NCBI GenBank assembly: GCA_964610475.1
Contig: CAZSZQ010000002.1
Coordinates: 1-59,449, forward strand
Length of the DNA: 59,449 nucleotides
Direction of reading: 5' to 3'
Source of the DNA: an uncultured Desulfatiglans sp.
GTDB taxonomy: Bacteria > Desulfobacterota > DSM-4660 > Desulfatiglandales > HGW-15
Shown here: one piece after another, positions 23,971 to 42,592 of the stretch
Numbering within the stretch: position 1 is the first letter of the stretch
How the letters are laid out: each line of letters starts with the position of its first letter
Position numbers and translations under genes: made by a program
Notes under the pieces: model-generated
Seen by the model: only the letters and a program-made list of their open reading frames with translations
What the model was told of the DNA's origin: nothing
The model's database searches: none

Positions 23971-24006
23971 GATCCTGTTCCATATTTTTAAAAGTAGTAA
24001 TTATAA

Positions 24007-24039
24007 GCTGTATCCGGTTTGCCGGATGCAGCTTTTTTT
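24007..24039 (+). terminator. rho-independent terminator after groEL
   Basis: Stem GCTGTATCCGG / CCGGATGCAGC (one G:T pair), loop TTTG, T7 tail. Confidence 0.75.
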
Positions 24040-24242
24040 ATGGCAACATCATGGATTTATTAAAGAAAATAAGACTCTTTTTTGAAATTGATACGTGATT
24101 TTTTCTGTTTGATGCAGCCTGATGGTTATGAGGTGCAGGATTCGGGTTATAACCTGACAGTGTGCTGTGTTGCGTTTTACATTTTTTAAATATGAAGATT
24201 TGAGGCCGGCGATTAAAATCGGTGTTCTTCTTTTATTACTTA

Positions 24243-24271
24243 TTGACACACAACGGTCTCCTTCATATACT
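24243..24271 (+). promoter_or_regulatory. near-consensus sigma-70 promoter for selenoprotein paralog 1
   Basis: TTGACA (24243-24248), exactly 17-nt spacer, TATACT (24266-24271). Confidence 0.55.
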
Positions 24272-24312
24272 GGGTTCTGAAGATAGAACAGTTATCAATT
24301 ATTTAACAACAT

Positions 24313-26040
24313 GTGAAATGGAGGCGCAAATTGACTAGAAAGATTTTTTCTATAATGTTAACTATTTTTTTCATTGCTGCCTGTTCGACACAAGATTCTA
24401 CGGAAAAAAATCCGGGAGTTTCAATACCAGTTGCTCCGCAAAATAAAATCAGTGTGTTGAATCCGACTCCGCCCAGTAAAATGGTTGATCGCATACCGCT
24501 TACACCAAGGCTCGATACGCTTGAAGGTAAGACGATATTCCTGGTGGATATCGGTTGGGGAGGTGCCCAGGCGGCTCCCAGCATTTATGAGGAAATGAAA
24601 GCCTGGTTTGGCCAGAATATGCCGAGTGTGAAGATAGAAATCCGAAAAATAAAGGGCTTTTACATGCAGGATCAGCCGGAACTCCTTAAGGAGATATCCG
24701 AAAAGGGTAATGCCGCCATGTTCGGCATTGCAGGCTGAGACAGCTGTACATCGGCCGTGAGCCGAAATTGTCAACAACTGGAACAGCAGTACAATATCCC
24801 CACTGTCGGGGGTTCTGCAGCCAATATTATCGATTATGCCATTAATTACAACTTCAAGTATACAAACGGATCACCTATCAGGTATATAGCCTTTCCTTTC
24901 CCGGTAGCGGGTCAGCCCCAATCTGTCCATCATAAATATATCTTTGAGAGCAATGATGTGGTAAGCGGTAAACCCATGATGCAGGCATTTATAGATGCAT
25001 TGACTGCTCCTCTTACCGAGAAAGAGAAATACAAAGGGCCGGTGCCTGAGGCTGAAATCGCACAAGAACCAGGCGAACCACACCTTATCGGGCCGGACAC
25101 CGAAGAGAACCTGCAACAGCTTTTCATAGATAAAGATTGGACAGACTATCTGCCGATTGTCCTTCCGACCGAGGAAAGGGTGGCAAAGATGCTTGAAGGC
25201 ACTACCCGCAAACCCGAAGAGGTTATAAAGGTATTGGACTGGCCCGGCGGCAGACGGGAGGTTACTGTAGAAAGGGTGGCAACATGCGCTGTTATGTCAG
25301 GAGCCAGGCCGGAACATCTTCCTGTAATCCTTGCACTGGCCAACCATATACCCTTTGGAAATTCAACCTCTTCCATGGCCAACATGATCCTGGTCAACGG
25401 TCCCATACGGGATGAAATAGGTATGAATTACGGCCACAACGTTATGGGACCCCATAATCTGGCCAACTCGGTTATAGGCCGCAGTTACACGATAATGTCA
25501 AAAACCATCGGTGGACTGCACAGTAAAAAGACAACCTGGAGCACCCTTGGGAGCACCATGCAGTACAACAATGTCTGCATCGCAGAAAATGAGGAGGCGC
25601 TGCCGGAAGGTTGGAAACCTTTTCACGTGCAGGCGGGGTTTAAACCAAATGATAGTGTTTTAACCGTGGCAACCGGGTGGTCATACATCTCATGCGTAAC
25701 AGAGGCCCAGAGGGAGTATCCGGTATATATGTGGATGGGCGACCTGATGAAAGCCCTTACTATGCCAAGACCCACGGTCATTATGGATCCTTCTGTTGCA
25801 AAACTTTTGAAGGATACCTATAAATATGATACCAAAGAGCAGCTTGCTAAGTGGTTTGCAGAAAATGTTGAAAAGATAAGGCAACCCTCAGGTGAGGTGA
25901 CGAAGCCCTTCCAGGAGGCATCAATTAATATAATCGTTACCGGTGGCGGCGGCCAGACAACATGGTTTGTGACGGATTTCGGGCTGAGCCGGAATATGGT
26001 TACGCAGGGAGGAAGTACACTCATAGACGACTGGAGGTAG
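24313..26040 (+). CDS. paralog 1: UxxC (UDSC) selenoprotein N-module fused to a conserved C-module of unknown function; predicted lipoprotein; TGA 24736-24738 read as Sec
   Basis: Track ORFs 24313-24738 and 24757-26040 share a frame, separated only by a TGA and 6 sense codons. The downstream piece has no SD. Likely true start is TTG 24331, 6 nt after GGAGG, giving MTRKIFSIMLTIFFIAAC (lipobox IAAC). Homologous along its length to 32997-34754. Confidence 0.8.
24741..24780 (+). promoter_or_regulatory. SECIS-like stem-loop downstream of UGA (paralog 1)
   Basis: Apical hairpin TCGGC-CGTGA-GCCGA (24751-24765) begins 12 nt after the UGA. Outer helix CAGCTGT (24741-24747) / ACAACTG (24774-24780) pairs 6 of 7. 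Confidence 0.6.
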
Positions 26041-26056
26041 TATAAAAAATAGGGTT

Positions 26057-26100
26057 CAAGGGCTGGAGTGAAAAACAGACTGCACAGCCCTTGCCCTTTT
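26057..26100 (+). terminator. candidate terminator between convergent genes
   Basis: 9-bp stem CAAGGGCTG / CAGCCCTTG with a 19-nt loop, followed by CCCTTTT. Confidence 0.4.
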
Positions 26101-26152
26101 GAAAGATTCACTGCCCTGGTATAAAAAACCGGAGAGGGGCATTTTAATAATT

Positions 26153-27115
26153 TTAGACAGCCTCAATTGTTGAAGGCGGTTTTGTAGCGATATTATATGT
26201 AACGCTAACAATACCGGGTACCTCACTTATTATATCGGCAGCAAGTTTTTCAAGCAGATCAAATGGAAGACGTGTGGGTGAGGCAGTACGGGCATCCACA
26301 CTGTTCCAGCATCTGACCTCTATCTGTTGCCCAAAATCGCGCTGTCCGTTGCGCATGCCGGTAACCCTGTCTTCATGAAGAATTCCCATATACTGAAAGG
26401 CCCCGGAGTTTTTCAGCCACTTTTCCACAACAGCTGTTGCTTTACGAACAGTCTCTATTCTCTCTGGTGTTGCCTCTCCTATAACCCTCGCTGCCAGGGC
26501 CGGTCCCGGAAAGGGGATGCGGTCAAAGAGTGCGGAAGGCAGGCCAAGAGCCTTCCCAATGATCCTGACACCGTCTTTACGCAGTTGTATCATCGGCTCA
26601 ATAATCCCGTAGCCGAATGATTCCATAGGATCTATTCCCAGCTGCTCAAAGACATTATGCTGACGCTTAATGCCTGCAACGGTTTCATCCACGTCCGTAA
26701 GAATTGTTCCCTGAAGAAGAAATTTTGCGCCGCTTTCTTTAACAATACGGCCAAAGACCTTCCTGTAAAAGGCTTCCCTGATAGCCTCCCTCTTTTGTTC
26801 AGGATCAGTTACTCCTCTGAGTTCTGAGAAGAATTCATCTCTTGCATCAATAACATCCACTCTGACACCGAGATCCCTGAAAAAGGCAACAACCTCCCCA
26901 GGTTCTCCCTGACGCATGAGGCCATTCTCAATAAAGACCGTCTTCAGTTTACTCCCCAGTGCCCGATGACCCAGCATCGTCACTGTGGATGAATCAACAC
27001 CCCCCGACAAAGCGTTTATTGCCATGCTGTCTCCAACAATCTCTTTGATTTCCTTTATCTTTGCCTCAATGAACTTTTCGGGGTTAATTTCCTGTACTTT
27101 GATTTCCTTGATCAT
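26153..27115 (-). CDS. stand-alone GMP synthase-type ATP pyrophosphatase (GuaA C-terminal/subunit B-like PP-loop protein), no GATase domain
   Basis: PP-loop SGGVDSS; dimerisation/C-terminal motif ATKPPSTIE; 320 aa. No glutamine amidotransferase domain is encoded adjacent. Confidence 0.75.
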   Translation of the reverse strand: MIKEIKVQEINPEKFIEAKIKEIKEIVGDSMAINALSGGVDSSTVTMLGHRALGSKLKTVFIENGLMRQGEPGEVVAFFRDLGVRVDVIDARDEFFSELRGVTDPEQKREAIREAFYRKVFGRIVKESGAKFLLQGTILTDVDETVAGIKRQHNVFEQLGIDPMESFGYGIIEPMIQLRKDGVRIIGKALGLPSALFDRIPFPGPALAARVIGEATPERIETVRKATAVVEKWLKNSGAFQYMGILHEDRVTGMRNGQRDFGQQIEVRCWNSVDARTASPTRLPFDLLEKLAADIISEVPGIVSVTYNIATKPPSTIEAV

Positions 27116-27759
27116 CCTTTACCCTCCCTTTCGGTGTACAGCATATTATTTGTTTTTTATAAAAATATCGTCCTATGCCTTGTTAATCGAGTTCCATCTG
27201 CAATAATTACTTTACTTGCGTGTTTTGCTACGATAACTATTTATTATGATGATGTAAAGTTTATTACACACAAGTAATGCCTCGGGCCAGTACATTTAGA
27301 CCAGGTGACATTACCCGGTTTGATCCTAACGCTCTTAAATCAGCATGGCTGCCCTGTATCTGTATTTTAAAACAAGGATGAAATATTCATAATGCCCATA
27401 AAGGAGTACATGGAATATTTCTATTCTCTTTTGATACGATGTGTATAGCCGCAGAAAGTTTATCAATGAAAAACTGCTTGATGAATGATGGGCCTGTTTT
27501 ACCAGGTTTTATGAAAACGACTCTGTTATATTTAATGTCTCCGTGTATTTTCACCAGGATGAAGCATATTATCAATCTAAAGGGGTAAAGTTTTAATAAA
27601 TAATTATAGCCAAAAAAAGGACATCTAATTCATTAGTGTGTCTTCTCCTTTGGCAATTTGTATCTTTCAGATCCCGGTTTTACTTACTATTATTACTCAC
27701 TGATGTTTATGAATGCATCAGCTTTTCGTCAGGTTTTTATTTGACTTTCAATGATCCTC

Positions 27760-27805
27760 TATACTAATTAATAATAGTATACTTCTATACATTACTATAG
27801 GTATA
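27760..27805 (+). promoter_or_regulatory. two tandem TATAC...GTATA inverted repeats (operator candidates) upstream of the dehydratase/ADP-forming ligase operon
   Basis: TATACT-N10-AGTATA at 27760-27781 and TATAC-N10-GTATA at 27786-27805. The same arms occur in the tetR promoter at 40393-40412. Confidence 0.35.
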
Positions 27806-27842
27806 AATCTTGAATTATTAGATCCTGCCAAAGAGGTAAGTT

Positions 27843-29015
27843 ATGACTGAAAAAAAGGTGGTGATGCCTGAAACGACAATCTCTCAGGAAATGATAGAGA
27901 ATATGCGCGCTAAACTGGGCCTTAAGTTAAGAGTTGACGATAGCACTCATAATGAGTACGCCACTCGAATGGCAATCCTGAAATTCACTGAAGGCATAGG
28001 AGATCCGAATCCTTTATGGACCGATGAAGAGTATGCAAATAAAAGCCGGTTTGGCAGTATCATCGCACCTCCGTCCTTCGTATGGGCATGTTTTGCTCAT
28101 GTAATGTTCGGGTGGAGAGGGCTTGGAGGTTTTCATGCAGGATGCGATGTGGAATTCATAAAGCCGATATTCATAGGTGACAAAATATCAGCAGAGTGTA
28201 TATTTAAAAGTTTTGATGGACCTAAAGAAAGCAGCTACGCTGATGAAACCGTAATAGATCATTTTGAGAATCAATATTGGAACCAAAATGGAGATTTGAT
28301 TGCAAGGTATCATTGGTGGGTAGTTCATTTTGCCAGGGGAAAAGCGCGGAAGAAAAAGAAGTTTACAGACCTTGAATTGCCACACCCGTGGACTGAGGAC
28401 CAATTACAGCAAATCGAGCAGGAAATTCTTTCTGAGAAAATCAGGGGTTCCAAACCTCGCTATTGGGAGGATGTTGAAATTGGCGATGAGTTTGGCCCGG
28501 TAATAAAGGGACCCCTTGGTGTAACTGATGAGATAGCTTATATCATTGGTGGCGGGGTACCTATTCCGAGATTGCAGGCCCATGGTGTTGCTCTGCAATC
28601 CTATAAAAAACACCCTGCCTGGATGTTCCGTGATCCTAATACCATGGGATACGAGCCGATCTTTGCTGTTCATTATAATAAATCAGCGGCAAACGCAATG
28701 GGGCTTCCACAGCCCTATGATATAGGTATGCAGAGGCATTGCTGGGGTGTACATTTAATAACAAACTGGATGGGAGATGATGCCTGGCTAAAGAGAAGTT
28801 ATACGGAATATAAAAAGTTTGTATATTTATCGGATGTGGTCCGGTTAAAAGGTAAAGTTGTAGACAAATTTATTGATGACGAAGGGGACTATTGCGTGCG
28901 TGTCGATAGATTTACCATAAATCAAAGGAATGAAAACGTGATGCCAGGTTATGCAATTGTTGCTCTTCCCTCAAAAATTGAAAAGTCGTCTCCCCTGGAT
29001 AGAAGAATAACTTAA
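27843..29015 (+). CDS. double hot-dog MaoC-like acyl dehydratase / enoyl-CoA hydratase
   Basis: 390 aa with an N-terminal MaoC-N-like segment (FTEGIGDPNPLWTDEEYA...IAPPSF) and a second hot-dog half. RBS aagagg. Family-level call only. Confidence 0.55.
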   Translation: MTEKKVVMPETTISQEMIENMRAKLGLKLRVDDSTHNEYATRMAILKFTEGIGDPNPLWTDEEYANKSRFGSIIAPPSFVWACFAHVMFGWRGLGGFHAGCDVEFIKPIFIGDKISAECIFKSFDGPKESSYADETVIDHFENQYWNQNGDLIARYHWWVVHFARGKARKKKKFTDLELPHPWTEDQLQQIEQEILSEKIRGSKPRYWEDVEIGDEFGPVIKGPLGVTDEIAYIIGGGVPIPRLQAHGVALQSYKKHPAWMFRDPNTMGYEPIFAVHYNKSAANAMGLPQPYDIGMQRHCWGVHLITNWMGDDAWLKRSYTEYKKFVYLSDVVRLKGKVVDKFIDDEGDYCVRVDRFTINQRNENVMPGYAIVALPSKIEKSSPLDRRIT

Positions 29016-29062
29016 TATAAGGTCTTTTTAATCAGACCAAAATAAATGTGAGGGTGATATTC

Positions 29063-31276
29063 ATGTTAGAAAACAATATACTCGATAAATTTTTTCATCC
29101 AAAGTCAATAGCTGTAATAGGAGCATCTGAAAATGTATTATCATATGGATCACGCTATATTCAGGCATTGATCGATTTCGGGTACAAAGGAAAGATATAT
29201 GCGGTCAATCATAATGGGGAAAAGGTACTTGGCCATAAAATTTACAGGAATATTGCTGACGTCCCAAAACCGGTTGACCTGGTATTTATTACAATCCCTG
29301 CCCGATTCGTTGTTGATGTCATAAAGGAGTGCATTGCAGAAGGTATCAAAGCTGCTGTTATATTTACAGCTGGATTCGGTGAAACCGGGGAAGAAGGCCT
29401 GAATATTGAGAACGAGATTGTTAAAGAGGCCGAAGGCAGGATGCGAATTATAGGGCCGAATTGCTTCGGTACATATTGTCCCAGCGGCGGAATTACATTA
29501 CTTAATGGAAATAACTTTTCAAAGGAACCCGGGTCAGTGGCATTGACTGCGCAAAGCGGCCAATTGTCCGAGGTTTTAATACCTCGGGCCCAGGGAGAAG
29601 GTCTCAGACACTCTAAATTTATCAGTTATGGGAATGCAAGCGATATTAATGAGGCAGATCTTCTTGAATATTTAATGAATGATAAAGATACAAAAATAAT
29701 TACATCTTATCTGGAAGGCGTTAAGGATGGCCGCCGTTATTTTAACATAACCCGAAAGAATCCGGGGAAAAAGCCGATTATCATCTGGAAAGTCGGTCTG
29801 AGTCAAATCGGTGCCGCTGCTTCCTCTTCACATACTGGCTCTCTTGCAGGAACAAGCGCGGCATGGGATGCCTTTTTTCATCAGACGAATGCAGTTAAGG
29901 TTACCAACCTGGATGAACTTATCGACACAATAACATCTTTTTCCTGTATGCCGGACGGTTGCGGACCAAGAGTGGCCTATGTCAGTGGCGGAGGTGCAGG
30001 CACTGTTATTGGAGCTGATGCATGTGAAGCTGCGGGAATGGAGATGCCGCAATTTTCTCCCAATACAGAGAAACAACTGCGTGAACTTTTTCCAAGCATT
30101 GGCACATCCCTGAGGAATCCAATTGATATTGGAAATCCCCACCCACAGTTAGACCTTTTAAAGTCGCTTCTGGAAATTATGTCCGCAGACAAAAATGTTG
30201 ATGTAATAGTGGTAAGAGGAATATTGTTCTCTGTAAAAACGAGTCAGATATTCAGCGGCACGACCGCACCTTCTGAAAATGATCAGCGCGACTTACTTGA
30301 TATTCCGGTTAAAGTGATGAAGAAATATAAAAAACCTATAACCATTATTTTACCGGAATATGTGACAAGCGTAGAAGCTGTAGATATTGAAGAAGATAGA
30401 AGAAAAATCCGTGATTATTTCTTTACTCACGGTATTCCGGTTTATCTCTCGGAACAGAGAGCCTTTGGCGCCCTTGCCCATCTCGCCAAATACAGACAGG
30501 TCAACGGGAAAACTGTAAAAGCTGTTGTTGCCGGAAAAAATGAAAATGAGAGGGCAATAACAAATGGCAGAAAACAGTTATTAAGTATTTTAGGAGAAAC
30601 AGAAAACTCAATACTGGATGAGATACAATGTAAAACCGTATTAAAAAGCATGGGAATAAAAGTATCCGAACCGGTATTGACCGGGTCAAAAACCGAAGCT
30701 GTCTCTGTGGCAAAGAAAATGGGATACCCGGTTGTAATGAAAGTAATTTCACCGCAAATCACTCATAAAAGCGATATTGGCGGAGTTAAACTGAATCTCA
30801 TGAACGATAGTCAGGTCAGGACAGCTTATACTGAAATCATGAAAGCAGCCGCAAAAAAGGCATCAAAAGCAACAATTGATGGCGTATCCATTCAAAAAAT
30901 GGCAAAGCCGGGACTTGAGCTTGTAATAGGCATGACAAAAGATCCGCAGTTCGGACCAATGCTGATGTTTGGTTTGGGAGGGATATTTATAGAAGTATTA
31001 AAAGATGTTTCCTTCAGGATTCTACCTCTATCAAGGAAAGATGCCCTAGATATGATACGTGGGATCAGGTCATATCATCTGCTTGAAGGGTTCAGGGGCC
31101 AACCAGAAATTGATATTAAATATCTGGAAGAATTGTTGCTGAAACTTTCCGGATTTATTATGGATACTCCTGAGATAAAGGAGATGGATATTAATCCGTT
31201 GATTGCTTATGAAAAAGGAGTTATTGCCGTTGACGCAAGAATTATTCTGGAAGAGAGAGAAGTGAGTCAAAAATAA
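29063..31276 (+). CDS. ADP-forming (NDP-forming) acyl-CoA synthetase, fused alpha/beta domains
   Basis: CoA-binding start FFHPKSIAVIGAS; GPNCFG; TAQSGQL; phospho-His loop SSSHTGSLAG; C-terminal ATP-grasp. ATG 29063 follows GAGGG; the track ORF starts at GTG 29048. Confidence 0.85.
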   Translation: MLENNILDKFFHPKSIAVIGASENVLSYGSRYIQALIDFGYKGKIYAVNHNGEKVLGHKIYRNIADVPKPVDLVFITIPARFVVDVIKECIAEGIKAAVIFTAGFGETGEEGLNIENEIVKEAEGRMRIIGPNCFGTYCPSGGITLLNGNNFSKEPGSVALTAQSGQLSEVLIPRAQGEGLRHSKFISYGNASDINEADLLEYLMNDKDTKIITSYLEGVKDGRRYFNITRKNPGKKPIIIWKVGLSQIGAAASSSHTGSLAGTSAAWDAFFHQTNAVKVTNLDELIDTITSFSCMPDGCGPRVAYVSGGGAGTVIGADACEAAGMEMPQFSPNTEKQLRELFPSIGTSLRNPIDIGNPHPQLDLLKSLLEIMSADKNVDVIVVRGILFSVKTSQIFSGTTAPSENDQRDLLDIPVKVMKKYKKPITIILPEYVTSVEAVDIEEDRRKIRDYFFTHGIPVYLSEQRAFGALAHLAKYRQVNGKTVKAVVAGKNENERAITNGRKQLLSILGETENSILDEIQCKTVLKSMGIKVSEPVLTGSKTEAVSVAKKMGYPVVMKVISPQITHKSDIGGVKLNLMNDSQVRTAYTEIMKAAAKKASKATIDGVSIQKMAKPGLELVIGMTKDPQFGPMLMFGLGGIFIEVLKDVSFRILPLSRKDALDMIRGIRSYHLLEGFRGQPEIDIKYLEELLLKLSGFIMDTPEIKEMDINPLIAYEKGVIAVDARIILEEREVSQK

Positions 31277-31300
31277 TATACCCGGAAGAAATCGAGATAG

Positions 31301-32344
31301 TTACTCCTCTATCTTTTTGGTCACAACACCTGTTCGTATGGCATAGGTTGGACAGAAGAGAGTATGTTTACCTGCCCCACCAGCGACCACAACAATTAGA
31401 TCCTCAGGCTTCTGGATTACAGGGATCAGATCTTCTTCCCCATAAGAGGTAAACTGCAGCTCCTGATGCTTTTTCGAATAATTTTTTTTCGGGATTCGTG
31501 CATTCCTGTGGATGTATTCCTTTAATTGTGCCTTTGAATAGCCGCCGTTCGCTATGATACGGGCGTGTTCAGGAGCGGGAATGAGAAGCGGCTCACCGCT
31601 CTGGTAGAGAATGTTATTATTGCCCTGGGTTGCGATGGATGCAGCATAGGTCACGAGCAGATTCTCGGCATCATCAGCCGTATGATCATTGATATTGTGC
31701 GGATTTTCTACCCCATTCACAGTGACCACGCTGTCGGTCTTTTCATACCCCATCTCCACGTGGAGAGGCTCCCACGGATTTTCTTCCTCGTTTTCTGCGA
31801 TGCAGAAAGAGTACTTGCTTGGTTGTCCATGAGTGGAAAGATCGAAGGTTCCCGGGAGACCTCCTCCTATATTAAGAAGTATGAGGCGCACAGCCCTTCC
31901 AATAGTGGCGTTAGCCCGGTTCGCCGGGCCAAATAGATTACATCCACAGTTCATACCTATGCTATGCCGGATAGGACCGTTTACAATAACAATTGGCGCT
32001 ACGGGATGGGTTGTTGCCTGAATGTTATGTAGCCCGAGAGAGGGTTCCGCCAGGGCCTGTACTGCCGCCACAAGAACAGGCATATATTCGGGGAGACATC
32101 CTGCCATTACAGCATTGATAGCTACAAGACTCACTGTGGCATCGTTCCCGGAGGGGGGTAGAATGCCGAGAACTTCTTCGGGATTCTTTTTGGTCCCCTT
32201 GAGCATTCTGGTCACTCGCTCCTCCGTAGGAGGGATTACAGGTAACCCGTCAGTCCATCCACGCTCGTGATAGATGTTATAGATCTCTTCCGGGTTATCG
32301 GGAACTTCCAGCATATTTATATTAAATTTTCCGCTATCTGTCAT
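31301..32344 (-). CDS. paralog 3, C-module as a stand-alone protein (conserved domain of unknown function)
   Basis: Aligns with the C-terminal roughly 350 aa of 24313-26040 and 32997-34754. Shared motifs: GWTDGLPVIPPTEERV, INAVMAGCLPEYMPVL, NGPIR, ANATIGRA, CIAENEEE. RBS AGGAGA. Confidence 0.75.
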   Translation of the reverse strand: MTDSGKFNINMLEVPDNPEEIYNIYHERGWTDGLPVIPPTEERVTRMLKGTKKNPEEVLGILPPSGNDATVSLVAINAVMAGCLPEYMPVLVAAVQALAEPSLGLHNIQATTHPVAPIVIVNGPIRHSIGMNCGCNLFGPANRANATIGRAVRLILLNIGGGLPGTFDLSTHGQPSKYSFCIAENEEENPWEPLHVEMGYEKTDSVVTVNGVENPHNINDHTADDAENLLVTYAASIATQGNNNILYQSGEPLLIPAPEHARIIANGGYSKAQLKEYIHRNARIPKKNYSKKHQELQFTSYGEEDLIPVIQKPEDLIVVVAGGAGKHTLFCPTYAIRTGVVTKKIEE

Positions 32345-32382
32345 TATTATCTCCTGAGCAGATCTATCTTTTTTTGACTTAA

Positions 32383-32952
32383 TTATCGGGCCCCCTGAGC
32401 ATTAGCATTTCCAACATTTCCAACAAGAGTGCAGATAATTTCTTTAATGGCGCCATCTGCCTTTTTAATGATCTCCGTGTCATTATTGAGGGCGATGGGG
32501 TGGGTTACGACGACGAGTGGCATGTCGGTTAACCTTTTTGCCTTGGCTGTAGTCCTCAGAAGGGCCGAAAAGCTTGTGGTGCAGACTGTTGTGGTAGGAA
32601 GGTTTCTCTTTTCGAGTTCAATGGAACTCTGGATACACCAGAGCGAACATCCCCCTCAATCTCCGGTGCCGATGACTGCACCATCACAGGTAGTAACGAT
32701 ATGATCAACAACTTCCGGCTCAATTACTTTTTTGGTGTCTCCTCTGTCACTTATCCATTCAATTCCTGACACTCCATATTGATCAGTGAGCAGTTCAGAG
32801 ACTCTTTTAAGAAAAATGTCACCTCCCAGTTTCCCGTTCCAGATTACAGCAAGCCGTTTCCCCTGGAGTGAGGTGAGACGCATGGCTGCCGCCACAGACT
32901 TTTTGACTCTCTTTACTCCAGTGGGAATATACACCATTATCTTTTCACCCAT
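32383..32952 (-). CDS. paralog 3, N-module: 189-aa UxxC (UGGC) selenoprotein; TGA 32656-32658 read as Sec
   Basis: Track ORF stops at TGA after ...AVIGTGD. The frame stays open for 90 more codons (GGCSLWCIQSSIELEKRNLP...) to TAA 32383-32385, and that extension is homologous to the post-Sec region of paralog 2. Otherwise 270 nt would be unexplained. RBS AGGAGG before ATG 32952. Confidence 0.75.
32627..32643 (-). promoter_or_regulatory. SECIS-like hairpin downstream of UGA (paralog 3)
   Basis: mRNA CUCUGG-UGUAU-CCAGAG, a perfect 6-bp stem starting 12 nt after the UGA. Confidence 0.6.
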
Positions 32953-32996
32953 GAATTTTCCTCCTGCTGTCTAAAACCATTTGCAACGGTTTTCTA

Positions 32997-34754
32997 TCAT
33001 CTCATTTTTACCACCTTTAATTTCTCAGTCCAGTCCACCGGAAGCTCAATACGCTTACTTGTAGTATAACCCAGACACCCGTTGCTGATAAATATATGAG
33101 CATTTGTTCTCCAGGGATCTCCGCTGACAGTGATTACGAAATCATCAGGCGAGCATACAATCGGCACCAGTCGATCAGGATCTTCAGACTCACAGAACTG
33201 TGGTCCAAGTACCCCTTCCTCTACATAATCGCAGAGTGAGACATGGTCAGGAGCAAAATTTGTCCATCCCCAGTTTAACTTTTCAACTTTCCATGCGGGT
33301 ATTCTAGCGTGATCATAAAGGTACTGTTTTACATCTTTTTTCGACCAGCCGCCTTTTGCGATTGTTTCGGCCAGCACGGGAGTAAGTATGAGATGAGGTC
33401 TTTGACTGCAGCCGATTGCAGGTCTGGGAAGGACCGTAAACCATATCTCCCATCCCATATAGCCGGTAAAACGGTCGGCGATATAGGTAAGTATTTCTTC
33501 CGGCTTCTGTCCGTATGCCCCGGTAATTACTCCTCCGCTGACATGTCTTGCTACGGTTACAACATTTTCACCTGCCTTAAAGCCCTGGTCAACACTCAGG
33601 GGATGCCATCCTATGCGTGCAATTGTGTCTTCATTCTCGGCCAGGACCACTTTCCATGTACCGCCAAAGGTCGCCATATCAGTTTGATGAAGATGAAATC
33701 CGGCTACATTCCTTAACATGAGTCTCCAGAAACGACCTATTGTTGTGTTCGCCTGAAATCCGTCACGCAATGCCCCCTGTTCGTAATTGAAGTCAAGCTC
33801 TTTAATTATGGGACCATTGAGGGTGATCAGCGTTTCCGAGCCGGGAGTATTGCCGCTGTGCTCAACACCATATTGCGGATCTGCCATTGCCTCCGTAAGA
33901 GCAATAAGCACCGGCATATATTCCGGTCTGCATCCGGCCATTACTCCGTTTACAGCGGTATTCCATATGGTTGCCTGTCGGCTGTCAGGAAGTAAAACCC
34001 CGATCACTTCCTTGGGTGCCCTGTCCGTAAAGGACATGAACCGTTCAACATTTTCCAGTGTCGGAGGAATAATCGGCAAAGAATCGTTCCACCCTCTGGA
34101 TAAAAAGAATCTGTTTACCTCTTCATATGAACCCTCAAAAACGATGCTTTCAAAAGTTGGCTCAGGTCTCTCTTTCTTGAGCAAAGGTACCTGCCCGGTC
34201 AACCCCTCAATAACTAAAGGTAATGTAGTGGTTTCGATGTTTGTCTTCAATTCTTCCGGGGTCTGTGTGTCAACATGACCGGGTATCATGGCAATAGCCA
34301 TATTGGGAAATCCGACGCCGCTCGCGACTGCCTGAGCACCCCTAACAAAGGATTCACAGATTAGAGGCACAACCGGAACACCGGCTTTTTCTACCACTGC
34401 ACTCGCCCGCATCACGGCAGACGTACAGCTTCCTCAGCATCCCACTGCTGATATTACTGCATCACAACCATATTTCTCCAGCCTGGCCGGTAACTCAGCC
34501 AGTACCTTTGCTTCATCTTTGTCATGAATATTTCCGAAATTATCATAGCTGACGAATTTGAGCTCTGAAAATTCCTTTGATAACCGGTCCTGAATTATCT
34601 TAAAAATACTGTCACCACGGAATACATAGTCCCATAACAGACCGACTGTCTTTCCGTTGAGTGTATCGAGGCGTTTTGAGATGCTTGTCGCTTTTATTGT
34701 TTTTTTCCCTTTGGGCCAGACCACCTTGTAGATACCTTTATTGGCCGCTTCCAT
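32997..34754 (-). CDS. paralog 2: UGSC selenoprotein N-module fused to the conserved C-module (585 aa); TGA 34434-34436 read as Sec
   Basis: Track ORFs 34434-34754 and 32997-34415 share a frame (339 nt offset), separated by a TGA and 6 sense codons. Junction reads AVISAVGC-U-GSCTSAVMRAS. No SD precedes the downstream piece. RBS GGGAGG before ATG 34754. Confidence 0.8.
34404..34423 (-). promoter_or_regulatory. SECIS-like hairpin downstream of UGA (paralog 2)
   Basis: mRNA CGUCUGC-CGUGAU-GCGGGCG, 7 bp including two G:U pairs, starting 10 nt after the UGA. Loop CGUGA(U) matches the paralog 1 loop CGUGA. Confidence 0.55.
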
Positions 34755-34877
34755 TCGAATCGCCTCCCGTATTTCTTATTTCATGTGATTCATGAGATGC
34801 TTTTGCTGCTTTTTTCTATGACGTTTATAACCTCAATCTTTAAGTGCATCTTAATCCGGAGAAGACTGTTTTAATTA

Positions 34878-35816
34878 TTAATTTGAATTTTTGTTTAAAG
34901 TCTGTAGGAATCTTTGCGCCGCCACTGCGGCGATAGCCCCGTCGCCCACTGCTGCAGATATCTGCTGGGGAGAATACTGCCGCAGGTCACCAGCCGCAAA
35001 TATACCCGGAACAGTTGTCTCCATATTTTGATTTATTTCAATTCGGCCTGAGGCATCGAGGGGCACAATACCATCGAAATAGGCCGTATTAGGCACAATC
35101 CCGATATGAACTAGGACTCCCTCTACCTGGAGAGTCTCTTTTTGGGATGTGCCGATATCTTCCAGTACAATACCTTTTACATTATTTTCGCCTGTAATCT
35201 CAATAACCTTTTGCCCGCGGCGAATCTCGATTTTTGGGTCGAAAGCTGCTCTTTCCTGATAGATTGGTGTGGCGGTCAGATTAGGCAGGGCTTCTATAAT
35301 TATTACTTTTGATGCAAGTTTGGACATATAAAGCGCCTCGGTTATACCTGCGTCTCCTCCTCCGCATACGGCCAGCACGCGGTTTTCGAACTGTCCCCCT
35401 TCACAGAGCGCACAATGTATCACGCCCCGCCCGTAAAATTTATCTTCGCCCGGAACATTCAGTTTTCTTGATGATGATCCACAGGCTATGATTATGGCCA
35501 TTGAAGTGTAATTTGTTCCATTTTTACATTTTACATTGAAGCAACTGGAATATGAAGCAATGTCCGTCACTTCACCCTGTTCCAGTTCTACATCATATTT
35601 CATGGCCTGACCTATCATCTCGGTGGCGAGTGCTGTCCCTTCTATTCCTTCGGAAAAACCGGGATAATTTTCAACCCAGGCGATATTCAGCAACTGCCCG
35701 CCAAACTGATCTTTTTCCACTAATAAAACCCGGTATTTGGCCCTGGCCAGATAAATACCGGCGGTTATTCCGGATGGCCCTGCTCCAATAATAATTACAT
35801 CGTAATCTGTTACCAC
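34878..35816 (-). CDS. thioredoxin-disulfide reductase-like FAD/NAD(P)H flavoprotein
   Basis: GAGPSG FAD motif; GGQL...ENYPGF; redox-active CALCEG (canonical TrxB has CATCDG); second dinucleotide motif GGGDAG; GDLR near the C-terminus; 312 aa. Confidence 0.85.
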   Translation of the reverse strand: MVTDYDVIIIGAGPSGITAGIYLARAKYRVLLVEKDQFGGQLLNIAWVENYPGFSEGIEGTALATEMIGQAMKYDVELEQGEVTDIASYSSCFNVKCKNGTNYTSMAIIIACGSSSRKLNVPGEDKFYGRGVIHCALCEGGQFENRVLAVCGGGDAGITEALYMSKLASKVIIIEALPNLTATPIYQERAAFDPKIEIRRGQKVIEITGENNVKGIVLEDIGTSQKETLQVEGVLVHIGIVPNTAYFDGIVPLDASGRIEINQNMETTVPGIFAAGDLRQYSPQQISAAVGDGAIAAVAAQRFLQTLNKNSN

Positions 35817-35878: not shown

Positions 35879-37438
35879 TTACTCTTTTTTATCAATAAGT
35901 TCTTTGCAATTTTTCTTTAGTATTGCTTTATCGATTTTTCCCACTGCATTTTTAGGTAACTCGTCTAAAAAATCTATGGACCGGGGTTTTTTATACCCGG
36001 CCAACCGGGAGGCGCAAAACTCCATCAGTTCTTTTTCGCCTATTTTATCTCTAAATTCCGTCTCCAGTGCGATAACCGCCTTTACTGATTCTCCCCATTC
36101 CCTGTCCGGTATGCCTATAACAGCAGCTTCATAGACTGCGGGGTGCTGGTATAACACCTCTTCAACCTCTCTGGTTGAAACATTTTCTCCCCCGCTGATT
36201 ATTATGTCTTTTTTCCTATCAACAATAAAGATATAACCGTCCTGGTCCCTGTAGCCTATATCACCCGTATAAAGCCAGCCATCTTTAAAGGTTTCTGCCG
36301 ATTCCTTGGGCAACTTCCAATAGGACCGGGCGATGTTATCGCCCTTACCCGTAATTTCGCCAATCTGCCCATCAGGGACTTCCTTTCCTTCCATATCAAC
36401 AATAGCAATTTCAACGCCCATGGCATCTTTTCCTACTGAACCGAGTTTTTCTGCCATAGTACCTTCAAGGGAGTGTTCACTACTGCGGAAATGAAGGAGG
36501 GCGCCATTAGCTTCAGTAGCACCCAGACCTGTTGTAAGCCGGTGAGATCCAAGAATTTTCATAGCTGCTTTAAGCTGTTCTTTGGGAATCGGAGCCCCTG
36601 CGTACATGATGAGTCTAATGCTTTCAAGATTATAGGATGATATATTGGGATCAGAGATAATTCTCCCGAGTACTGTTGGGACCAGGTTGATAAATGTAAT
36701 TTTTCTATTTTGTATAATTTTATACATCGGATCCAGATCGAATCTGGGCATCAGGACAGTCGTACCTCCCCGGTAAACCATACTCAACATGGGCCATAAC
36801 CCGCCAAGGTGGAAGAGCGGCATTGCAAGAAGACTGATATCTTCAGGAACAAGATCCAGTTCAAGGCACATCGTGTTGGTATTTGCCATTATGTTCCGAT
36901 GTGTTGATATAACGCCCCTTGGAAAGCCCGTGGCTCCGCTTGTGAACATAATCATGGCCATATCATCGGGCTCTACTGTTACAAGGGGTTCAGAATCTGA
37001 AGCACTTGAGATAAGATCTTCATAGGAGAGCACATTATCTCCGTAATTTCCCGTTGATATGTAATGGTTGATCCCGGCAATGTTCTTCCGTATTTTTTGA
37101 ACAGTTGCTTCCATTTCTTTGTCATAGATAAGAAGAGTCACTTCAGCATTTCTGAGAACATAGGATGCTTCATCACCGGAGAAGCGTGCATTTACCGGAA
37201 CGGCGATTGAACCGATCTTTGCAATGGCAAAATAGAATTCTATGAAATGGTGGGAGTTGTATCCCATAAAGGCTATCTTATCACCCTTGGTTATTCCTAT
37301 CCCCAGAAGGGCATTTGCCAGCCTGTTAACTCTTTGATTAATTTCTCGATAATTATACTCTTTTTCTCCGTCAATAACCGCTACCTTCCGGTTGCGAATC
37401 CTCGCTTCTCTAAGTATTATGTCACCGATCAGCATCAT
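35879..37438 (-). CDS. AMP-forming acyl-CoA ligase (adenylate-forming superfamily)
   Basis: AMP-binding motif FTSGATGFPRG; YGATE-like GLGATE; TGDIGYRDQDGY; C-terminal LPKNAVGKIDK. Confidence 0.85.
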   Translation of the reverse strand: MMLIGDIILREARIRNRKVAVIDGEKEYNYREINQRVNRLANALLGIGITKGDKIAFMGYNSHHFIEFYFAIAKIGSIAVPVNARFSGDEASYVLRNAEVTLLIYDKEMEATVQKIRKNIAGINHYISTGNYGDNVLSYEDLISSASDSEPLVTVEPDDMAMIMFTSGATGFPRGVISTHRNIMANTNTMCLELDLVPEDISLLAMPLFHLGGLWPMLSMVYRGGTTVLMPRFDLDPMYKIIQNRKITFINLVPTVLGRIISDPNISSYNLESIRLIMYAGAPIPKEQLKAAMKILGSHRLTTGLGATEANGALLHFRSSEHSLEGTMAEKLGSVGKDAMGVEIAIVDMEGKEVPDGQIGEITGKGDNIARSYWKLPKESAETFKDGWLYTGDIGYRDQDGYIFIVDRKKDIIISGGENVSTREVEEVLYQHPAVYEAAVIGIPDREWGESVKAVIALETEFRDKIGEKELMEFCASRLAGYKKPRSIDFLDELPKNAVGKIDKAILKKNCKELIDKKE

Positions 37439-37487
37439 TTTCTATTTCCAGTTTTTTTGACTGTTGATATATAATTCCAGTCCTGTT

Positions 37488-39053
37488 TTATTGACTTAAA
37501 GCCTTTAATTCCTTTTCCCGTTCCTTGAGGAGTTTTCTCTTGATTTTCCCATCCGGTGTTTTTGGCAGATCTGCTATGAAATCGATTTCCCGCGGATACT
37601 CGTGTTTGCTCAGTCTGGTTTTCACAAAAGCCTTGATTTCTTCTTCAAGATCTTCAGATTCTGTATAGCCTTTTTTGAGTACGATGATGGCCTTGACAAC
37701 TTCACCCCTGTTTTTATCAGGACTCCCGACGACGGCGCATTCTTCAACAGCAGGATGTTTGTTAATAGCTCCTTCTACCTCAATAGGGCCAATGGTATAG
37801 CCGGCTGAGATAATAACATCATCAATTCTTCCCACATACCATAAATATCCGTCTTCATCGATATAAGCGCTATCACCTATCTTGAACCATGCATTATTTC
37901 TCCAGAGGGCAACCTGACCGGTCGTTCCGGGAGGAACTTCTTTTTCGTTTTCATCAAGGATGGCTATTTTGATACCACCTAACATTAATTTACCTAAACT
38001 TCCCGGTTTAATAACCCAATTGTCAAAGGCCATGAAATCAAGGGCAATAGGACCTGCCTCAGTGGTACCATACTGAGCCGCAGGATAAATGCCCCATTCA
38101 CGGTGAAGGGCAGCAACTGTATCCTTTGTCATGGCTTCGCCCGTATAATTGATTGTCCTGAGCCTGACTTTGTATTTATCAACATTTGGAGATTCCATAA
38201 TGAGGCGGTAATGAGAGGAAATGGCTGCCATAATTGTAACTCCCCATTCCTCCAGGGCTTCAAGTACCATGTCCGTATCGAACTTGCCGGAAAAAGTACC
38301 AAGTGCCCTCCCATGGATAAGAGGAGCTATGGTGCCATACCATATACCGTGTCCCCAGCCGGGTGATGAAGGACAGAAATAAATGTCATCAGGTCTAAGT
38401 CCATTTCCGAGTTTCATGACCACTCCTGCGACTGAGATAGCACCATGTTTGTAAAGGATGGATTTTGGCTCTCCGGTAGTGCCGCTCGAAAATTGCATCA
38501 TGCAGACGGTGTTTACATCTGTTTTCCATTCATAGCTGTCGGAACACTTCGATAACTCTTCCATAAGGTCATCTGCATAAATAATCCTGAGGCCAAGTTT
38601 CTCGGCAAGCTCCTTATCAATATTTTTTGTCATGGCCTTTGTTGTTATAATTGCCTTTGCATTTGATCTTAAAAGTCTGAAATTTATTGCTTCCGGCCCA
38701 AAAAGAGGAAAACACATTACAGCTACTGCCCCTCTTCTGAATGTACCGAACATGCTTATGTAAAGCTCAATGGAGGGGAAGAGCAATATAACAACCTTAT
38801 CTCCTGATTTTATTTCTTTTTCTTGAAGGTAGTTGGCAAAGCGTCGAGTATACTCTGAGAACTGCCCGAATGTATACATTTCCGATCTTCCATCGGAAAA
38901 TTTTATGCGTATCGCAGTTTCATCCTTGGGATGTCGATCAATACATTCATGGGCAATGTTAAAATGCTCTTTTGTGCCGTCAAAAAGGGACCATCTTTCT
39001 TTCCAGTTGAACTTTTCTTTAGCGTCATCGTAGCTGATATAGTCAAGACTCAT
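37488..39053 (-). CDS. AMP-forming acyl-CoA synthetase (medium-chain/acetyl-CoA-synthetase-like)
   Basis: FSSGTTGEPK; QYGTTE; GDSAYIDEDGY; LPKTPDGKIKR. Confidence 0.85.
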   Translation of the reverse strand: MSLDYISYDDAKEKFNWKERWSLFDGTKEHFNIAHECIDRHPKDETAIRIKFSDGRSEMYTFGQFSEYTRRFANYLQEKEIKSGDKVVILLFPSIELYISMFGTFRRGAVAVMCFPLFGPEAINFRLLRSNAKAIITTKAMTKNIDKELAEKLGLRIIYADDLMEELSKCSDSYEWKTDVNTVCMMQFSSGTTGEPKSILYKHGAISVAGVVMKLGNGLRPDDIYFCPSSPGWGHGIWYGTIAPLIHGRALGTFSGKFDTDMVLEALEEWGVTIMAAISSHYRLIMESPNVDKYKVRLRTINYTGEAMTKDTVAALHREWGIYPAAQYGTTEAGPIALDFMAFDNWVIKPGSLGKLMLGGIKIAILDENEKEVPPGTTGQVALWRNNAWFKIGDSAYIDEDGYLWYVGRIDDVIISAGYTIGPIEVEGAINKHPAVEECAVVGSPDKNRGEVVKAIIVLKKGYTESEDLEEEIKAFVKTRLSKHEYPREIDFIADLPKTPDGKIKRKLLKEREKELKALSQ

Positions 39054-39165: not shown

Positions 39166-39365
39166 ATTTTTGAATATTTACATGGAGCTGATTGATCTGA
39201 GGCTGACAGCACTCTGACAAGATCAAAGGCCTGATCTTTGATAGGGTCAACTGCAGCAAGGATAAGAGGCATATACTGGTATAGACAACCGGCTATTACA
39301 GCGTTAAAATAATTGGCTGGATCTGTAGGTTTTTTATGTCCTTTTTTCCGTTCTTCTATTAAGTC
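39166..39365 (-). pseudogene. decayed fragment of a fourth copy of the conserved C-module
   Basis: Minus-strand translation reads LIEERKKGHKKPTDPANYFNAVIAGCLYQYMPLILAAVDPIKD. It matches PTEERV...KKNPEEV...INAVMAGCLPEYMPVLVAAV of 31301-32344. It has an internal deletion, no start codon, and stops on both sides. Confidence 0.5.
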
Positions 39366-40519: not shown

Positions 40520-41167
40520 ATGGGTGTTGCGGAAAGAAGAGTCAGAGAAAAGCAGCAGCGCAGGGATTTGGCGATTCAGGCAGCTATGGAAATATATAAT
40601 GAAGATGGATACTACGCCGTCACCATGGAAAAGATTGCAGAACGCGCTGAAATCAGCAGAGCGACTCTTTATCTCTATTTTAAAAATAAAGATGAAATAT
40701 TTATCAGCGCCATAAAGGAATATATGGATTATTTTTGTTCGCTGCTGGATGATGTATATACCCGGTGTAGATCCATCCATGAAAAGTTACTTGATGCATT
40801 ATGGGAGTGTTTCATCAAATTCTACCAGAAAGACCCTGTTGCATTCAATGTGTCCATGTATTTTCATCAGAATGAAGCAGTAAGAAATCTACCTGAAGAG
40901 CTACGCAGACTCTTATATGAGGCAGGGTCAAATGCCGTTACTTATCAACACAAGATAGCAGAATATGGTGTTGAACAGGGTATCTTTATTGACTGCAATT
41001 CCAGGACCCTGGCGGAAGTAATATGGAGTTCATTTCTTGGCATAATGCAGGTGGAAAGGAGCAAGGGCGAGATTACAGGCAAAACACATATTGAGACTAC
41101 ACGTGATCTTGCACTTGAGGTGCTGGCCAGGGGTATATTGAGGGATAAAAATCATATAGCGGTATAA
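40520..41167 (+). CDS. TetR/AcrR family transcriptional regulator
   Basis: N-terminal HTH TMEKIAERAEISRATLYLYFKNKDEIF; 215 aa. Confidence 0.85.
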   Translation: MGVAERRVREKQQRRDLAIQAAMEIYNEDGYYAVTMEKIAERAEISRATLYLYFKNKDEIFISAIKEYMDYFCSLLDDVYTRCRSIHEKLLDALWECFIKFYQKDPVAFNVSMYFHQNEAVRNLPEELRRLLYEAGSNAVTYQHKIAEYGVEQGIFIDCNSRTLAEVIWSSFLGIMQVERSKGEITGKTHIETTRDLALEVLARGILRDKNHIAV

Positions 41168-41215
41168 TATATTTAAATAACAAGCTCAGGTAAACATGAG
41201 GAGGAAAATGAATAG

Positions 41216-41716
41216 ATGAAGCATCTTATCCGATTAAAGGTGAATGGTGACACCTATACTGTCGCGTGTGAGTCATCCCGCACTCTTAATGAGGTCCTTA
41301 GAGAAGACCTTGGTTTGACAGGCACCAAGCTGGGATGCAGTGACGGGGACTGCGGGGCCTGCACTGTTATGATTGATGGGAATTCTGTCAGTTCATGCCT
41401 GACACTGGCTGCATCCTGTGAAGGAAAGGAAATAACCACAGTAGAAGGGCTGGCAAGATCAGGGGAGGAGCTGCATCCCATACAGGAAGCCTTTATAGAA
41501 AAAGGGGCAATTCAGTGCGGTTTCTGTACAGCCGGGATGGAGATGTCGGCCTTGAATCTGTTGAGTAAAAACAGTTCACCCACAGAAGAGGAAATCCGGA
41601 CAGCAATATCCGGAAACCTTTGCCGGTGCACAGGTTACTATAAAATAGTTGAGGCAATAGACAGTGCTGCTGAAAAAATTAGAAAGAAACAAAAAAAAAT
41701 TAAGAAGAGGATATAA
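41216..41716 (+). CDS. molybdenum hydroxylase small subunit, two [2Fe-2S] clusters (CoxS/XdhC-type)
   Basis: GCSDGDCGACTV; QCGFCTAGM; CRCTGY. Confidence 0.9.
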   Translation: MKHLIRLKVNGDTYTVACESSRTLNEVLREDLGLTGTKLGCSDGDCGACTVMIDGNSVSSCLTLAASCEGKEITTVEGLARSGEELHPIQEAFIEKGAIQCGFCTAGMEMSALNLLSKNSSPTEEEIRTAISGNLCRCTGYYKIVEAIDSAAEKIRKKQKKIKKRI

Positions 41717-41719
41717 AAA

Positions 41720-42592
41720 ATGGGTCTTTCCAGATTTGATTACTATGCTCCTGAAACAATAAAAGAGGCATGTAAACTGGCCTCTGAAATGGGTAAAGGC
41801 GCAATGTTTATGGCCGGTGGCACCGATCTTTTAATAAAAATCAAAAGAAAGCTGCTCAAAGCCACGGCTGTTATTGATATAAAAAAAATAAAAGGGCTGG
41901 ACGAAATATCCTTTGACAGGAGAAAAGGGCTCACGATCGGCTCTGCAGTAACTCTAACAGCAATCGAAAACCATACTCTGATAAAGGAAAAATATCCTGC
42001 CATAGCTGATGCAGCACATGCTACAGCCAATGTCCAGATTAGAAACATGGCGTCAATTTCAGGGAACCTTTGCAATGCCGCTCCATCGGCGGAAAACGCC
42101 CCGGTTCTAATGGCTATGAGTGCGCATGTAATGCTTGCTTCTCAGGACGGAACAAGGTCATTGCCGCTGGATGGATTTTTTAAGGGCCCTGGTAAAACAG
42201 TTATAAAACAGGGTGAGATCCTTACATCGATTACCGTGCCTGTGCCTCCCAATGGCTCAGGAACTTCATACCAGCATATATCCGCCAGGAGCAAGGTGGA
42301 TATCTCCGCGGTCAATGTCGGCGCCATGCTTATCATGTATGGCGATATCTGCGAGGATGCAAGGATATTCCTGGGCGCTGTTGCCCCCACTCCCATGATG
42401 GCAAAAAACGCACAAAAGGTCCTGAAGGGCAAAAAATTAACCGAGGAACTCCTTCAGACAGCAGGTTTAGAGGCGTCCAAAGAATGCAGTCCCATTACAG
42501 ATATGCGTGCAACTGCTGAATATAGAAGACTCATGGTTGCAGTTTTAACTGGTAGAGCAATTGATGAATCAAGAAGCAGGGCTGCAAGGTAA
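41720..42592 (+). CDS. molybdenum hydroxylase FAD-binding medium subunit (CoxM-type)
   Basis: FAD_binding_5 motif MAGGTDLL; C-terminal CO-dehydrogenase flavoprotein domain (TDMRATAEYR). Confidence 0.85.
   Translation: MGLSRFDYYAPETIKEACKLASEMGKGAMFMAGGTDLLIKIKRKLLKATAVIDIKKIKGLDEISFDRRKGLTIGSAVTLTAIENHTLIKEKYPAIADAAHATANVQIRNMASISGNLCNAAPSAENAPVLMAMSAHVMLASQDGTRSLPLDGFFKGPGKTVIKQGEILTSITVPVPPNGSGTSYQHISARSKVDISAVNVGAMLIMYGDICEDARIFLGAVAPTPMMAKNAQKVLKGKKLTEELLQTAGLEASKECSPITDMRATAEYRRLMVAVLTGRAIDESRSRAAR

Follow-up and report, generated by a model that had tools for sequence, protein, structure and literature searches.

The region 31301..32952, on the minus strand of a 59,449-nt stretch of DNA from an uncultured Desulfatiglans sp. 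(contig CAZSZQ010000002.1; the whole stretch is called the window below), very probably represents the two-gene version of a widespread two-part selenoenzyme. Its first gene, for a member of the UGSC family of selenoproteins, carries an in-frame UGA that is almost certainly read as selenocysteine (Sec), and its second gene, with a ribosome-binding site of its own, encodes the partner of this protein. The UGSC part is referred to here as the N-module and the partner as the C-module; the split pair is paralog 3 (genes N3 and C3), and paralogs 1 and 2 of the window are each one reading frame holding both modules, with a single TGA interruption. In regard to its role, the pair is most likely a two-part selenol/thiol reductase.

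The N3 gene opens with an ATG at 32952..32950 and continues through 98 codons (open reading frame (ORF) 32952..32659) to a TGA at 32658..32656, past which the frame stays open for 90 more sense codons, until the TAA at 32385..32383. The ATG of the partner gene lies 38 nt beyond this TAA. Residues around the UGA read G-T-G-D-U-G-G-C-S-L-W-C, which gives the motif UxxCxxxC. A sequence-only reading of the window had already described this layout, with a TGA-ended ORF 32656-32952, a frame open for 90 codons to TAA 32383, a UGGC selenoprotein of 189 amino acids (aa) and a C-module of 347 aa encoded 38 nt downstream behind its own AGGAGA, and both the sequence (AGGAGA 32355..32350, ATG 32344) and its translation bear this out. 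The motif that it named is present in this gene, but the second Cys is lineage-specific and only UxxC is found family-wide.

When Sec is entered as Cys, the 189-aa product scores 134 bits against the Pfam model PF24696 (E 7.6e-39, cut-off 25 bits), residues 7-177 being aligned with profile positions 2-171 of 172, and 111.4 bits against the NCBIfam model NF041046 (E 3.7e-32, profile positions 1-146 of 147). The Pfam alignment is full-length and crosses the UGA, and the extension 32383-32655, in which a parallel to the post-Sec region of paralog 2 had been seen earlier, is homologous to other N-modules and forms the second half of this one. An ortholog in one of the collected loci (L001) is 79.6% identical over 186 aa, the post-UGA part included. 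A word-index search with the 189-aa protein returned just four matches, all of them N-terminal fragments, because databases truncate UGSC genes at the UGA. Like other members of the family, paralog 3 has Sec at the family position and a Cys three residues on; it differs in the middle of the motif (UGGC), in an extra Cys at +7, where most members have Ser (family consensus UxxCxxxS), and in a score below the NCBIfam equivalog cut-off. Since UGGC also occurs in loci L021, L023 and L051, and UGAC in L018, L023 and L029, the middle residues of the motif vary within the family. The N-gene of paralog 3 belongs, as a slightly divergent member, to an already known family of selenoproteins and shows one of the two layouts common there. 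Some fused proteins of ~468 aa already carry the NCBI name 'UGSC family (seleno)protein'.

Zhang and Gladyshev (2007, 2008) listed the UGSC-containing protein as a selenoprotein of unknown function, and it belonged to the selenoprotein families of highest abundance in the Global Ocean Sampling data, where 255 Sec and 21 Cys forms of it were counted (PMC1976440, PMC2398784). Sec forms likewise outnumber Cys forms among the family members collected in our study. In the literature, UGSC is seen as a stand-alone protein of unknown function with a 'likely Trx-like fold' (PMC2398784), and a 2026 review lists it as uncharacterised (PMC13188914). A fusion named 'UGSC/Unknown_1' is already given in the 2008 paper, where it serves as an argument for a functional link (PMC2398784); Unknown_1 may correspond to the C-module.

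Surveys in both directions connect the two modules. Around C-module homologues, 83 loci were collected, mostly from GTDB genomes and with two near-identical copies among them, and tblastn found a UGSC-like match in 75 of these. When each copy was classified in a deduplicated set that includes the window, 24 of the 95 C-modules were fused to UGSC and 54 were split from an adjacent UGSC gene, which stood immediately upstream in 40 cases and immediately downstream in 14; for the rest, UGSC was farther off in the locus (nine copies) or absent (seven), or the copy lay at a contig edge (one). Several fusions were confirmed by direct translation, e.g. as a single Sec-containing ORF in Robertmurraya. 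In the reciprocal survey, metagenome contigs were scanned with the DNA pattern of the UGA and the hairpin codons described below, giving 120 contigs. Of the contigs extending 700 nt or more to each side, 50 out of 51 had the C-module adjacent or fused to UGSC, and where only the downstream side could be assessed it was present in 25 out of 30. Pairs with the C-module downstream were split in 49 cases and fused in 33 (roughly 60:40), with a median spacer of ~5 nt in the split ones. Furthermore, the best 150 cluster representatives of the C-module family include 79 stand-alone proteins, 55 fused ones and eight with two C-modules; 36 of the 55 have an N-terminal extension of 55-120 aa, as for a fused gene cut at the UGA, and 19 are full-length fusions.

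Separate genes thus match the halves of a fused protein and their linkage is conserved, which is the pattern that the Rosetta-stone argument asks for. Because 50 of the 51 contigs have the two modules next to each other or fused, a functional link between UGSC and the C-module is strongly supported by these comparisons, and the earlier suggestion that fused and split forms in one locus mean that the modules work together gains support from the wider sample. One unit occurs in two interchangeable layouts, split and fused, both common, and, as the partner is near-constant, the split arrangement is a frequent one and does not stem from a local break-up. The near-obligatory pairing with the family of 345 aa, the ~60:40 ratio of split to fused pairs and a clade with reversed gene order do not appear in the papers on UGSC that were consulted.

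The heading 'natural domain fission', under which the sequence-only reading had placed paralog 3, is not established by these comparisons. An ancient fission, in which paralog 3 and its split relatives would descend from a fused ancestor through one or more old splits, is possible though rather unlikely; the heading would then hold for deep time, though not for this locus. Architecture follows clades on a neighbour-joining tree of the 95 C-modules, and with midpoint rooting Fitch parsimony gives a fused root, the two deepest clades being fused; however, this tree has long branches and was rooted by midpoint only, without an outgroup or support values. At least six switches between fused and split are needed whatever the root, and in a 14-member clade the C-module precedes UGSC, so that a simple split of an N-C fusion is insufficient. 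Moreover, the Pfam and NCBIfam models of UGSC were built on proteins of ~150-170 aa, and the 2008 paper takes the fused form as derived (PMC2398784). The members of the reverse-order clade (L014, L016, L037, L041, L056, L062, L078, L080, L083 and others) share the motif U-G-S-C-x-x-C-S, and their hairpin has the pair GG/CC switched to GC/GC.

It could also be supposed that the two genes are functionally independent neighbours, with UGSC as an oxidoreductase of general thiol/selenol type beside an unrelated gene downstream. The variable wider neighbourhood of the partner and the lack of a recognisable redox motif of the partner conserved in all paralogs would agree with this, but the reading is highly improbable given the adjacency or fusion in 50/51 and 25/30 UGSC-seeded contigs and in 78/95 C-module copies, the spacers of ~5 nt, the recurrence of independent fusions and the co-divergence of N and C modules between paralogs.

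The partner family linked to UGSC in this way is large. HMMER over 1.84 billion cluster representatives gave 7638 matches at E<=1e-3, of which 5124 reached E<=1e-10 and 2358 reached E<=1e-30; the second figure corresponds to about 5,000 clusters at 50% identity, and a word-index search with C3 gave at least 8000 matches. The 347-aa protein has no match in Pfam or NCBIfam, and no consistent family appeared when 34 C-module proteins were compared with both at E<=5. Its AlphaFold2 model is of high confidence (predicted local distance difference test score (pLDDT) 91.4, predicted template modelling score (pTM) 0.91); the best Foldseek match to it in the PDB had an E of 0.03 and a template modelling (TM) score of 0.27, and a profile search of PDB sequences with the C-module gave chance matches only. 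Foldseek hints of Toblerone-, chorismatase- or YjgF-like structures were considered too weak (TM<0.3), and no fold was assigned. The invariant polar residues D32, T112, N122-G-P, N132, N145, R150, T171, E184-N-E186 and K271, together with the nearly invariant C83, H113, H195 and H260, suggest that the C-module may contain an enzyme pocket. Two C-modules in tandem are present in P0245, P0251, P0255, P0297, P0313 and P0317 (~710 aa) and in P0153 (861 aa), where they follow a post-Sec piece of UGSC.

That the UGA at 32658..32656 is almost certainly read as Sec is indicated by four independent lines of evidence, namely its conservation, the codon pattern past it, a conserved hairpin, and the presence of a hairpin in all three window paralogs. 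In 81 of the 93 site rows from tblastn, TGA stands in the Sec column, and eight rows have Cys there, a few of the rows being duplicated or one or two codons out of register; the Cys forms are those of archaea (Methanobacterium, Natrialba) and Sphingomonas. Compared with their counterparts in L001 (88% identical), the 90 codons after the UGA comprise 47 identical, 24 synonymous and 19 non-synonymous ones, and the differences at codon positions 1/2/3 number 11/8/34 after the UGA and 10/12/49 before it. These differences, mostly at third positions and of the same pattern on both sides, show the post-UGA frame to be under codon-level purifying selection.

Fused UGSC and C-module proteins whose redox site lacks both Sec and Cys were also found (L001 10476..12197, L010 7420..8985 and P0188; sequences GLTGTSS, GMSGGST and GGGSSAP); they are presumably redox-dead or work differently. 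In a sub-type with G-H-U-G-S-S-(A/T)-P-W (L025 3656, L046 3500, L071 3659), the UGA is kept, the Cys at +3 is replaced by Ser, and a different, G+C-rich hairpin takes the place of the usual one.

The usual hairpin provides a further line of evidence. The perfect stem CUCUGG-UGUAU-CCAGAG at 32643..32627, whose position 12 nt past the UGA had been noticed from the window sequence, becomes a 7-bp stem with an 11-nt spacer when the flanking G.U pair 32644/32626 is included, and it is built of the codons for L-W-C-I-Q-S. When 78 homologous UGA sites were aligned without gaps over the UGA and the next 45 nt (48 nt), the hairpin was found at constant columns, 15-22 paired with 26-33 (counted from the U of UGA), with the consensus GUCGUGGA-GUG-UCCACGAC, i.e. 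the codons for S-W-S-V-H-D. In this alignment 86.7% of the cells are paired, versus 21-49% after a shift of the 3' arm by 1-3 columns; seven of the eight pairs have double-sided changes, with 37 cells changed on both sides, and the covariation value was reached by none of 500 shuffles. A change of Trp UGG to Cys UGC is accompanied by a synonymous switch of Val from GUC to GUG on the opposite arm, which reflects selection on the RNA itself. In paralog 3 itself, three pairs differ from the consensus on both sides and still pair (UCG-UGG...CAC-GA to CUC-UGG...CAG-AG). All three window paralogs have a hairpin 13-15 nt after the UGA, and the Cys forms of Methanobacterium have none.

Its behaviour as a selenocysteine insertion sequence (SECIS) is thus supported by comparative data. 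The SECIS of E. coli fdhF, which Liu et al. in 1998 and Huttenhofer et al. are said to have described, is reportedly a stem-loop ~11 nt after the UGA with G/U in the apical loop. The UGSC hairpin resembles it in its 11-nt spacer, in a stem of 7-8 bp, in a small GU-containing apical loop and in its location within the coding sequence, but the sequences are unrelated; the loop counts three nucleotides in the UGSC consensus (GUG/GUA) and five in paralog 3 (UGUAU). Since the hairpin lies in the codons for T-S-W-S-V-H-D, a part of the amino-acid conservation after Sec is explained by it, and the same codons offer a simple DNA pattern for detecting UGSC genes.

If, alternatively, the UGA were a true stop, the 98-aa ORF would be what is left of a gene in decay or cut short, with an open frame behind it that is due to chance or is a relic. 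The 98-aa protein of the public record and the lack of Sec machinery in the window would fit, but purifying selection at the codon level past the UGA, a full-length Pfam match across it, the retention of UGA at the Sec column across phyla with Cys as its replacement, and a conserved and co-varying hairpin leave this reading with very little probability. The public record splits the selenoproteins of the window at the UGA, giving a 98-aa ORF (32659..32952, P0415) for paralog 3 and a 472-aa ORF (32997..34415, P0125) for paralog 2, both on the minus strand, and all three window selenoproteins are mis-annotated in this way.

The three paralogs are old. Their N-modules are 21-25% and their C-modules 31-32% identical to one another, and N3 (~35%) and C3 (up to 51%) resemble split pairs from other phyla more than they do the neighbouring copies of the window. 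The best 120 relatives of C3, out of the at least 8000 matches, are 50-94% identical to it, come from Thermodesulfobacteriota and Chloroflexota and are all stand-alone; they measure 337-358 aa, except for three entries of 217-268 aa that cover 63-77% of the query. The tandem of a fused and a split form is also present in L001 and, differently arranged, in the Chloroflexota locus L003. A recent local fission, by which a duplicate of paralog 1 or 2 would have acquired a stop and a new start, has a practically negligible chance, for although N3 and the fused paralog 2 lie 44 nt apart in one gene string, N3/N2 and C3/C2 are only 22% and 32% identical, C3 is closest to the 120 mostly stand-alone proteins just mentioned, and the same pair of split and fused genes recurs in L001 and L003; as a local event, the fission proposed earlier was mistaken.

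In the paralog 2 counterpart of L001 (3629..4197), the pre- and post-UGA halves stand in different frames, which reflects either a frameshift or a misassembly. At its N-terminus, paralog 1 has a lipoprotein-type signal (24313..24400, plus strand; KWRRKLTRKIFSIMLTIFFIAAC/S), and an exported or lipid-anchored fused UGSC selenoprotein would be unusual; its C-module has VMSGA where the partner family has VMAGC, so the conserved Cys is absent. A relic of a fourth C-module (…NAVIAGCLYQYMPLILAAV…), bounded by stops, is found at 39183..39308 (minus strand), in the 436-nt spacer upstream of a CoA-ligase gene.

With regard to better known selenoproteins, the UGSC N-module is distantly related to the Sec region of GrdB and PrdB but lies outside that family. 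The GrdB model TIGR01917 is matched by 17 of 31 UGSC proteins at E<0.1 (best 1.7e-6) and TIGR01918 by eight of 31, and some also match the GrdH, GrdF and PrdB models, always around Sec; the profile matches are weak yet repeated. The individual scores are low: the 189-aa protein has 13.4 bits against TIGR01917, and paralog 2 has 17.5 bits against TIGR01918, missing the cut-off of 65. Apart from the profile matches at the Sec region, UGSC would share with GrdB/PrdB the U-x-x-C chemistry, the work with a second, substrate-binding polypeptide and the reduction by a thioredoxin-type system. They differ in that UGSC scores 13-18 bits against curated cut-offs of 65-775 (TIGR01917, TIGR01918, TIGR04483), in the position of the Sec region, which is C-terminal in GrdB and N-terminal in the UGSC fusions, and in the partner, which resembles none of the Grd or Prd subunits. 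The motif differs as well, being UxxCxxC in GrdB (PMC13188914), as the sequence-only reading had correctly stated, UxxCxxxC in paralog 3 and UxxC only in the UGSC family at large. Among 20 neighbouring ORFs of the window, no pyruvoyl proprotein of the GrdE/PrdA type and no GrdA or GrdC/D domains were found.

The structure of the UGSC part was modelled with AlphaFold2 in P0133, a fused Cys-type homologue that is 53% identical to paralog 2 (pLDDT 89, pTM 0.90). In this model it consists of alternating beta-alpha units, with the Sec-equivalent Cys105 in the loop after a strand and Cys108 as the first residue of the next helix, which is the usual geometry of a redox-active pair. Foldseek with the fused model gave generic Rossmann-, flavodoxin- and FtsZ-like matches (TM<0.45) with no thioredoxins in the top 50, and no fold was assigned; a profile search of PDB sequences with UGSC gave chance matches only.

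According to the mechanism that we propose, by analogy with the Sec domain of the B proteins of glycine and proline reductase, the SECIS hairpin 11 nt past the UGA would direct the insertion of Sec, leading to the 189-aa product with its U-G-G-C redox motif. The partner would bind the substrate, probably a small organic acid derivative, which the Sec selenolate of UGSC could then attack or reduce. The Cys at +3 would resolve the intermediate, giving a selenenylsulfide, and a thioredoxin-type system might reduce it again, with the adjacent thioredoxin-reductase-like flavoprotein as a candidate. For glycine reductase, reduction by a thioredoxin-type system is established. In a wider and more tentative sense, UGSC and its partner may constitute an unrecognised and very widespread two-component selenoenzyme, present in bacteria and, in its Cys form, in archaea, with a Sec subunit that is an offshoot of the GrdB/PrdB Sec domain, and with the function of reducing a small organic substrate, or of cleaving it reductively, outside the classical Stickland fermenters; this broader proposal seems to us possible, if still short of an even chance.

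Several observations weigh against the picture of a Sec-dependent two-part enzyme. No tRNA-Sec, selA, selB or selD is present among the annotated ORFs of the window (about half of its ORFs are annotated), ARAGORN found no tRNA in it, and, in consequence, the Sec competence of the host is attested by the three UGA-containing paralogs only. Taken alone, the hairpin is thermodynamically unexceptional (63-nt fold, z = -1.4), and Rfam gave no match to it, either in 24000..35000 at E<=1 or in the whole window at gathering scores; its significance comes from the comparative data and not from the folding of a single sequence. The literal motif of paralog 3 is UGGC instead of UGSC, with the UxxC spacing kept and Ser replaced by Gly, and the 189-aa product misses the equivalog cut-off of NF041046 (125 bits), so that it is a member of the family by Pfam yet not at the stringency of the NCBI equivalog; the other window copies score 69.9 (paralog 2) and 29.7 (paralog 1) against this model. 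As for the partner, its conserved Cys (NAVMAGC) is Ala in paralog 1, and it has no detectable similarity to GrdE or PrdA. The thioredoxin-reductase-like neighbour was seen in five distinct loci only, and 128 sampled neighbours were heterogeneous, the commonest family being TctC (carboxylate receptors) with 13 of the 128. Finally, while the recoding signals, the membership in the UGSC family and the pairing of the modules are shown, substrate, chemistry and electron donor are all inferred.

If the wider proposal is true, the most abundant aquatic and soil selenoprotein family of 'function unknown' gains a catalytic partner and a testable chemistry. UGSC being almost never found without the 345-aa protein, the right unit for expression and assay is both parts together with a thioredoxin system. 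For the locus itself, the outcome is mainly a correction of the annotation. The broader point, of moderate interest, is the near-obligatory partner of a selenoprotein family that is abundant and of unknown function; a large protein family without a database model or structural relative is thereby flagged.

Table 1. Coordinates of the UGSC and partner genes of the window and of features associated with them.
Feature	Position	Strand	Basis
UGSC-family selenoprotein gene (N-module of paralog 3), 189 aa including Sec99	32383..32952 (TAA included)	minus	translation, PF24696, NF041046, ortholog in L001
In-frame UGA, almost certainly Sec, context D-U-G-G-C	32656..32658	minus	column aligned with TGA/Cys of homologues
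SECIS-like hairpin G-CUCUGG / UGUAU / CCAGAG-U	32626..32644	minus	columns shared with the family hairpin
AGGAGG ribosome-binding site of the UGSC gene	32960..32965	minus	read from the sequence
AGGAGA ribosome-binding site of the partner gene, within the 38-nt spacer	32350..32355	minus	read from the sequence
Partner gene (C-module, C3), 347 aa, ATG 32344..32342	31301..32344	minus	family without Pfam/NCBIfam model
Paralog 2, fused UGSC and C-module, 585 aa, UGA 34434..34436 (C-U-G-S-C)	32997..34754	minus	in frame across the UGA
Paralog 1, fused UGSC and C-module, UGA 24736..24738 (G-U-D-S-C)	24313..26040	plus	lipoprotein-type N-terminal signal
Thioredoxin-reductase-like flavoprotein (Pyr_redox_2, motif C-A-L-C), candidate electron donor	34878..35816	minus	directly upstream, same gene string

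The thioredoxin-reductase-like gene adjoins UGSC also in L001, L003, L004 and L010; with five distinct loci in all, it was rejected as a general feature of the system, and the survey of 128 neighbours revealed no dominant third partner. In the window, two acyl-CoA ligase (AMP-binding) genes belong to the same upstream gene string, and genes for a MaoC-type hydratase, an ADP-forming acyl-CoA synthetase and a xanthine-dehydrogenase-type molybdoenzyme are found nearby. The segments flanking the UGSC genes, 40520..44898 (plus strand) and 35879..39053 (minus strand), hold a TetR regulator, the three subunits of the molybdoenzyme, which is of the xanthine-dehydrogenase / 4-hydroxybenzoyl-CoA-reductase type (Fer2_2, FAD_binding_5, MoCoBD), and the two AMP-binding CoA ligases. 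These surroundings look like a catabolic island for organic or aromatic acids. Elsewhere in the window, in a 774-aa ORF (19361..21685, minus strand), a PALP (cysteine-synthase-like) domain and an entire cysteinyl-tRNA synthetase are fused.

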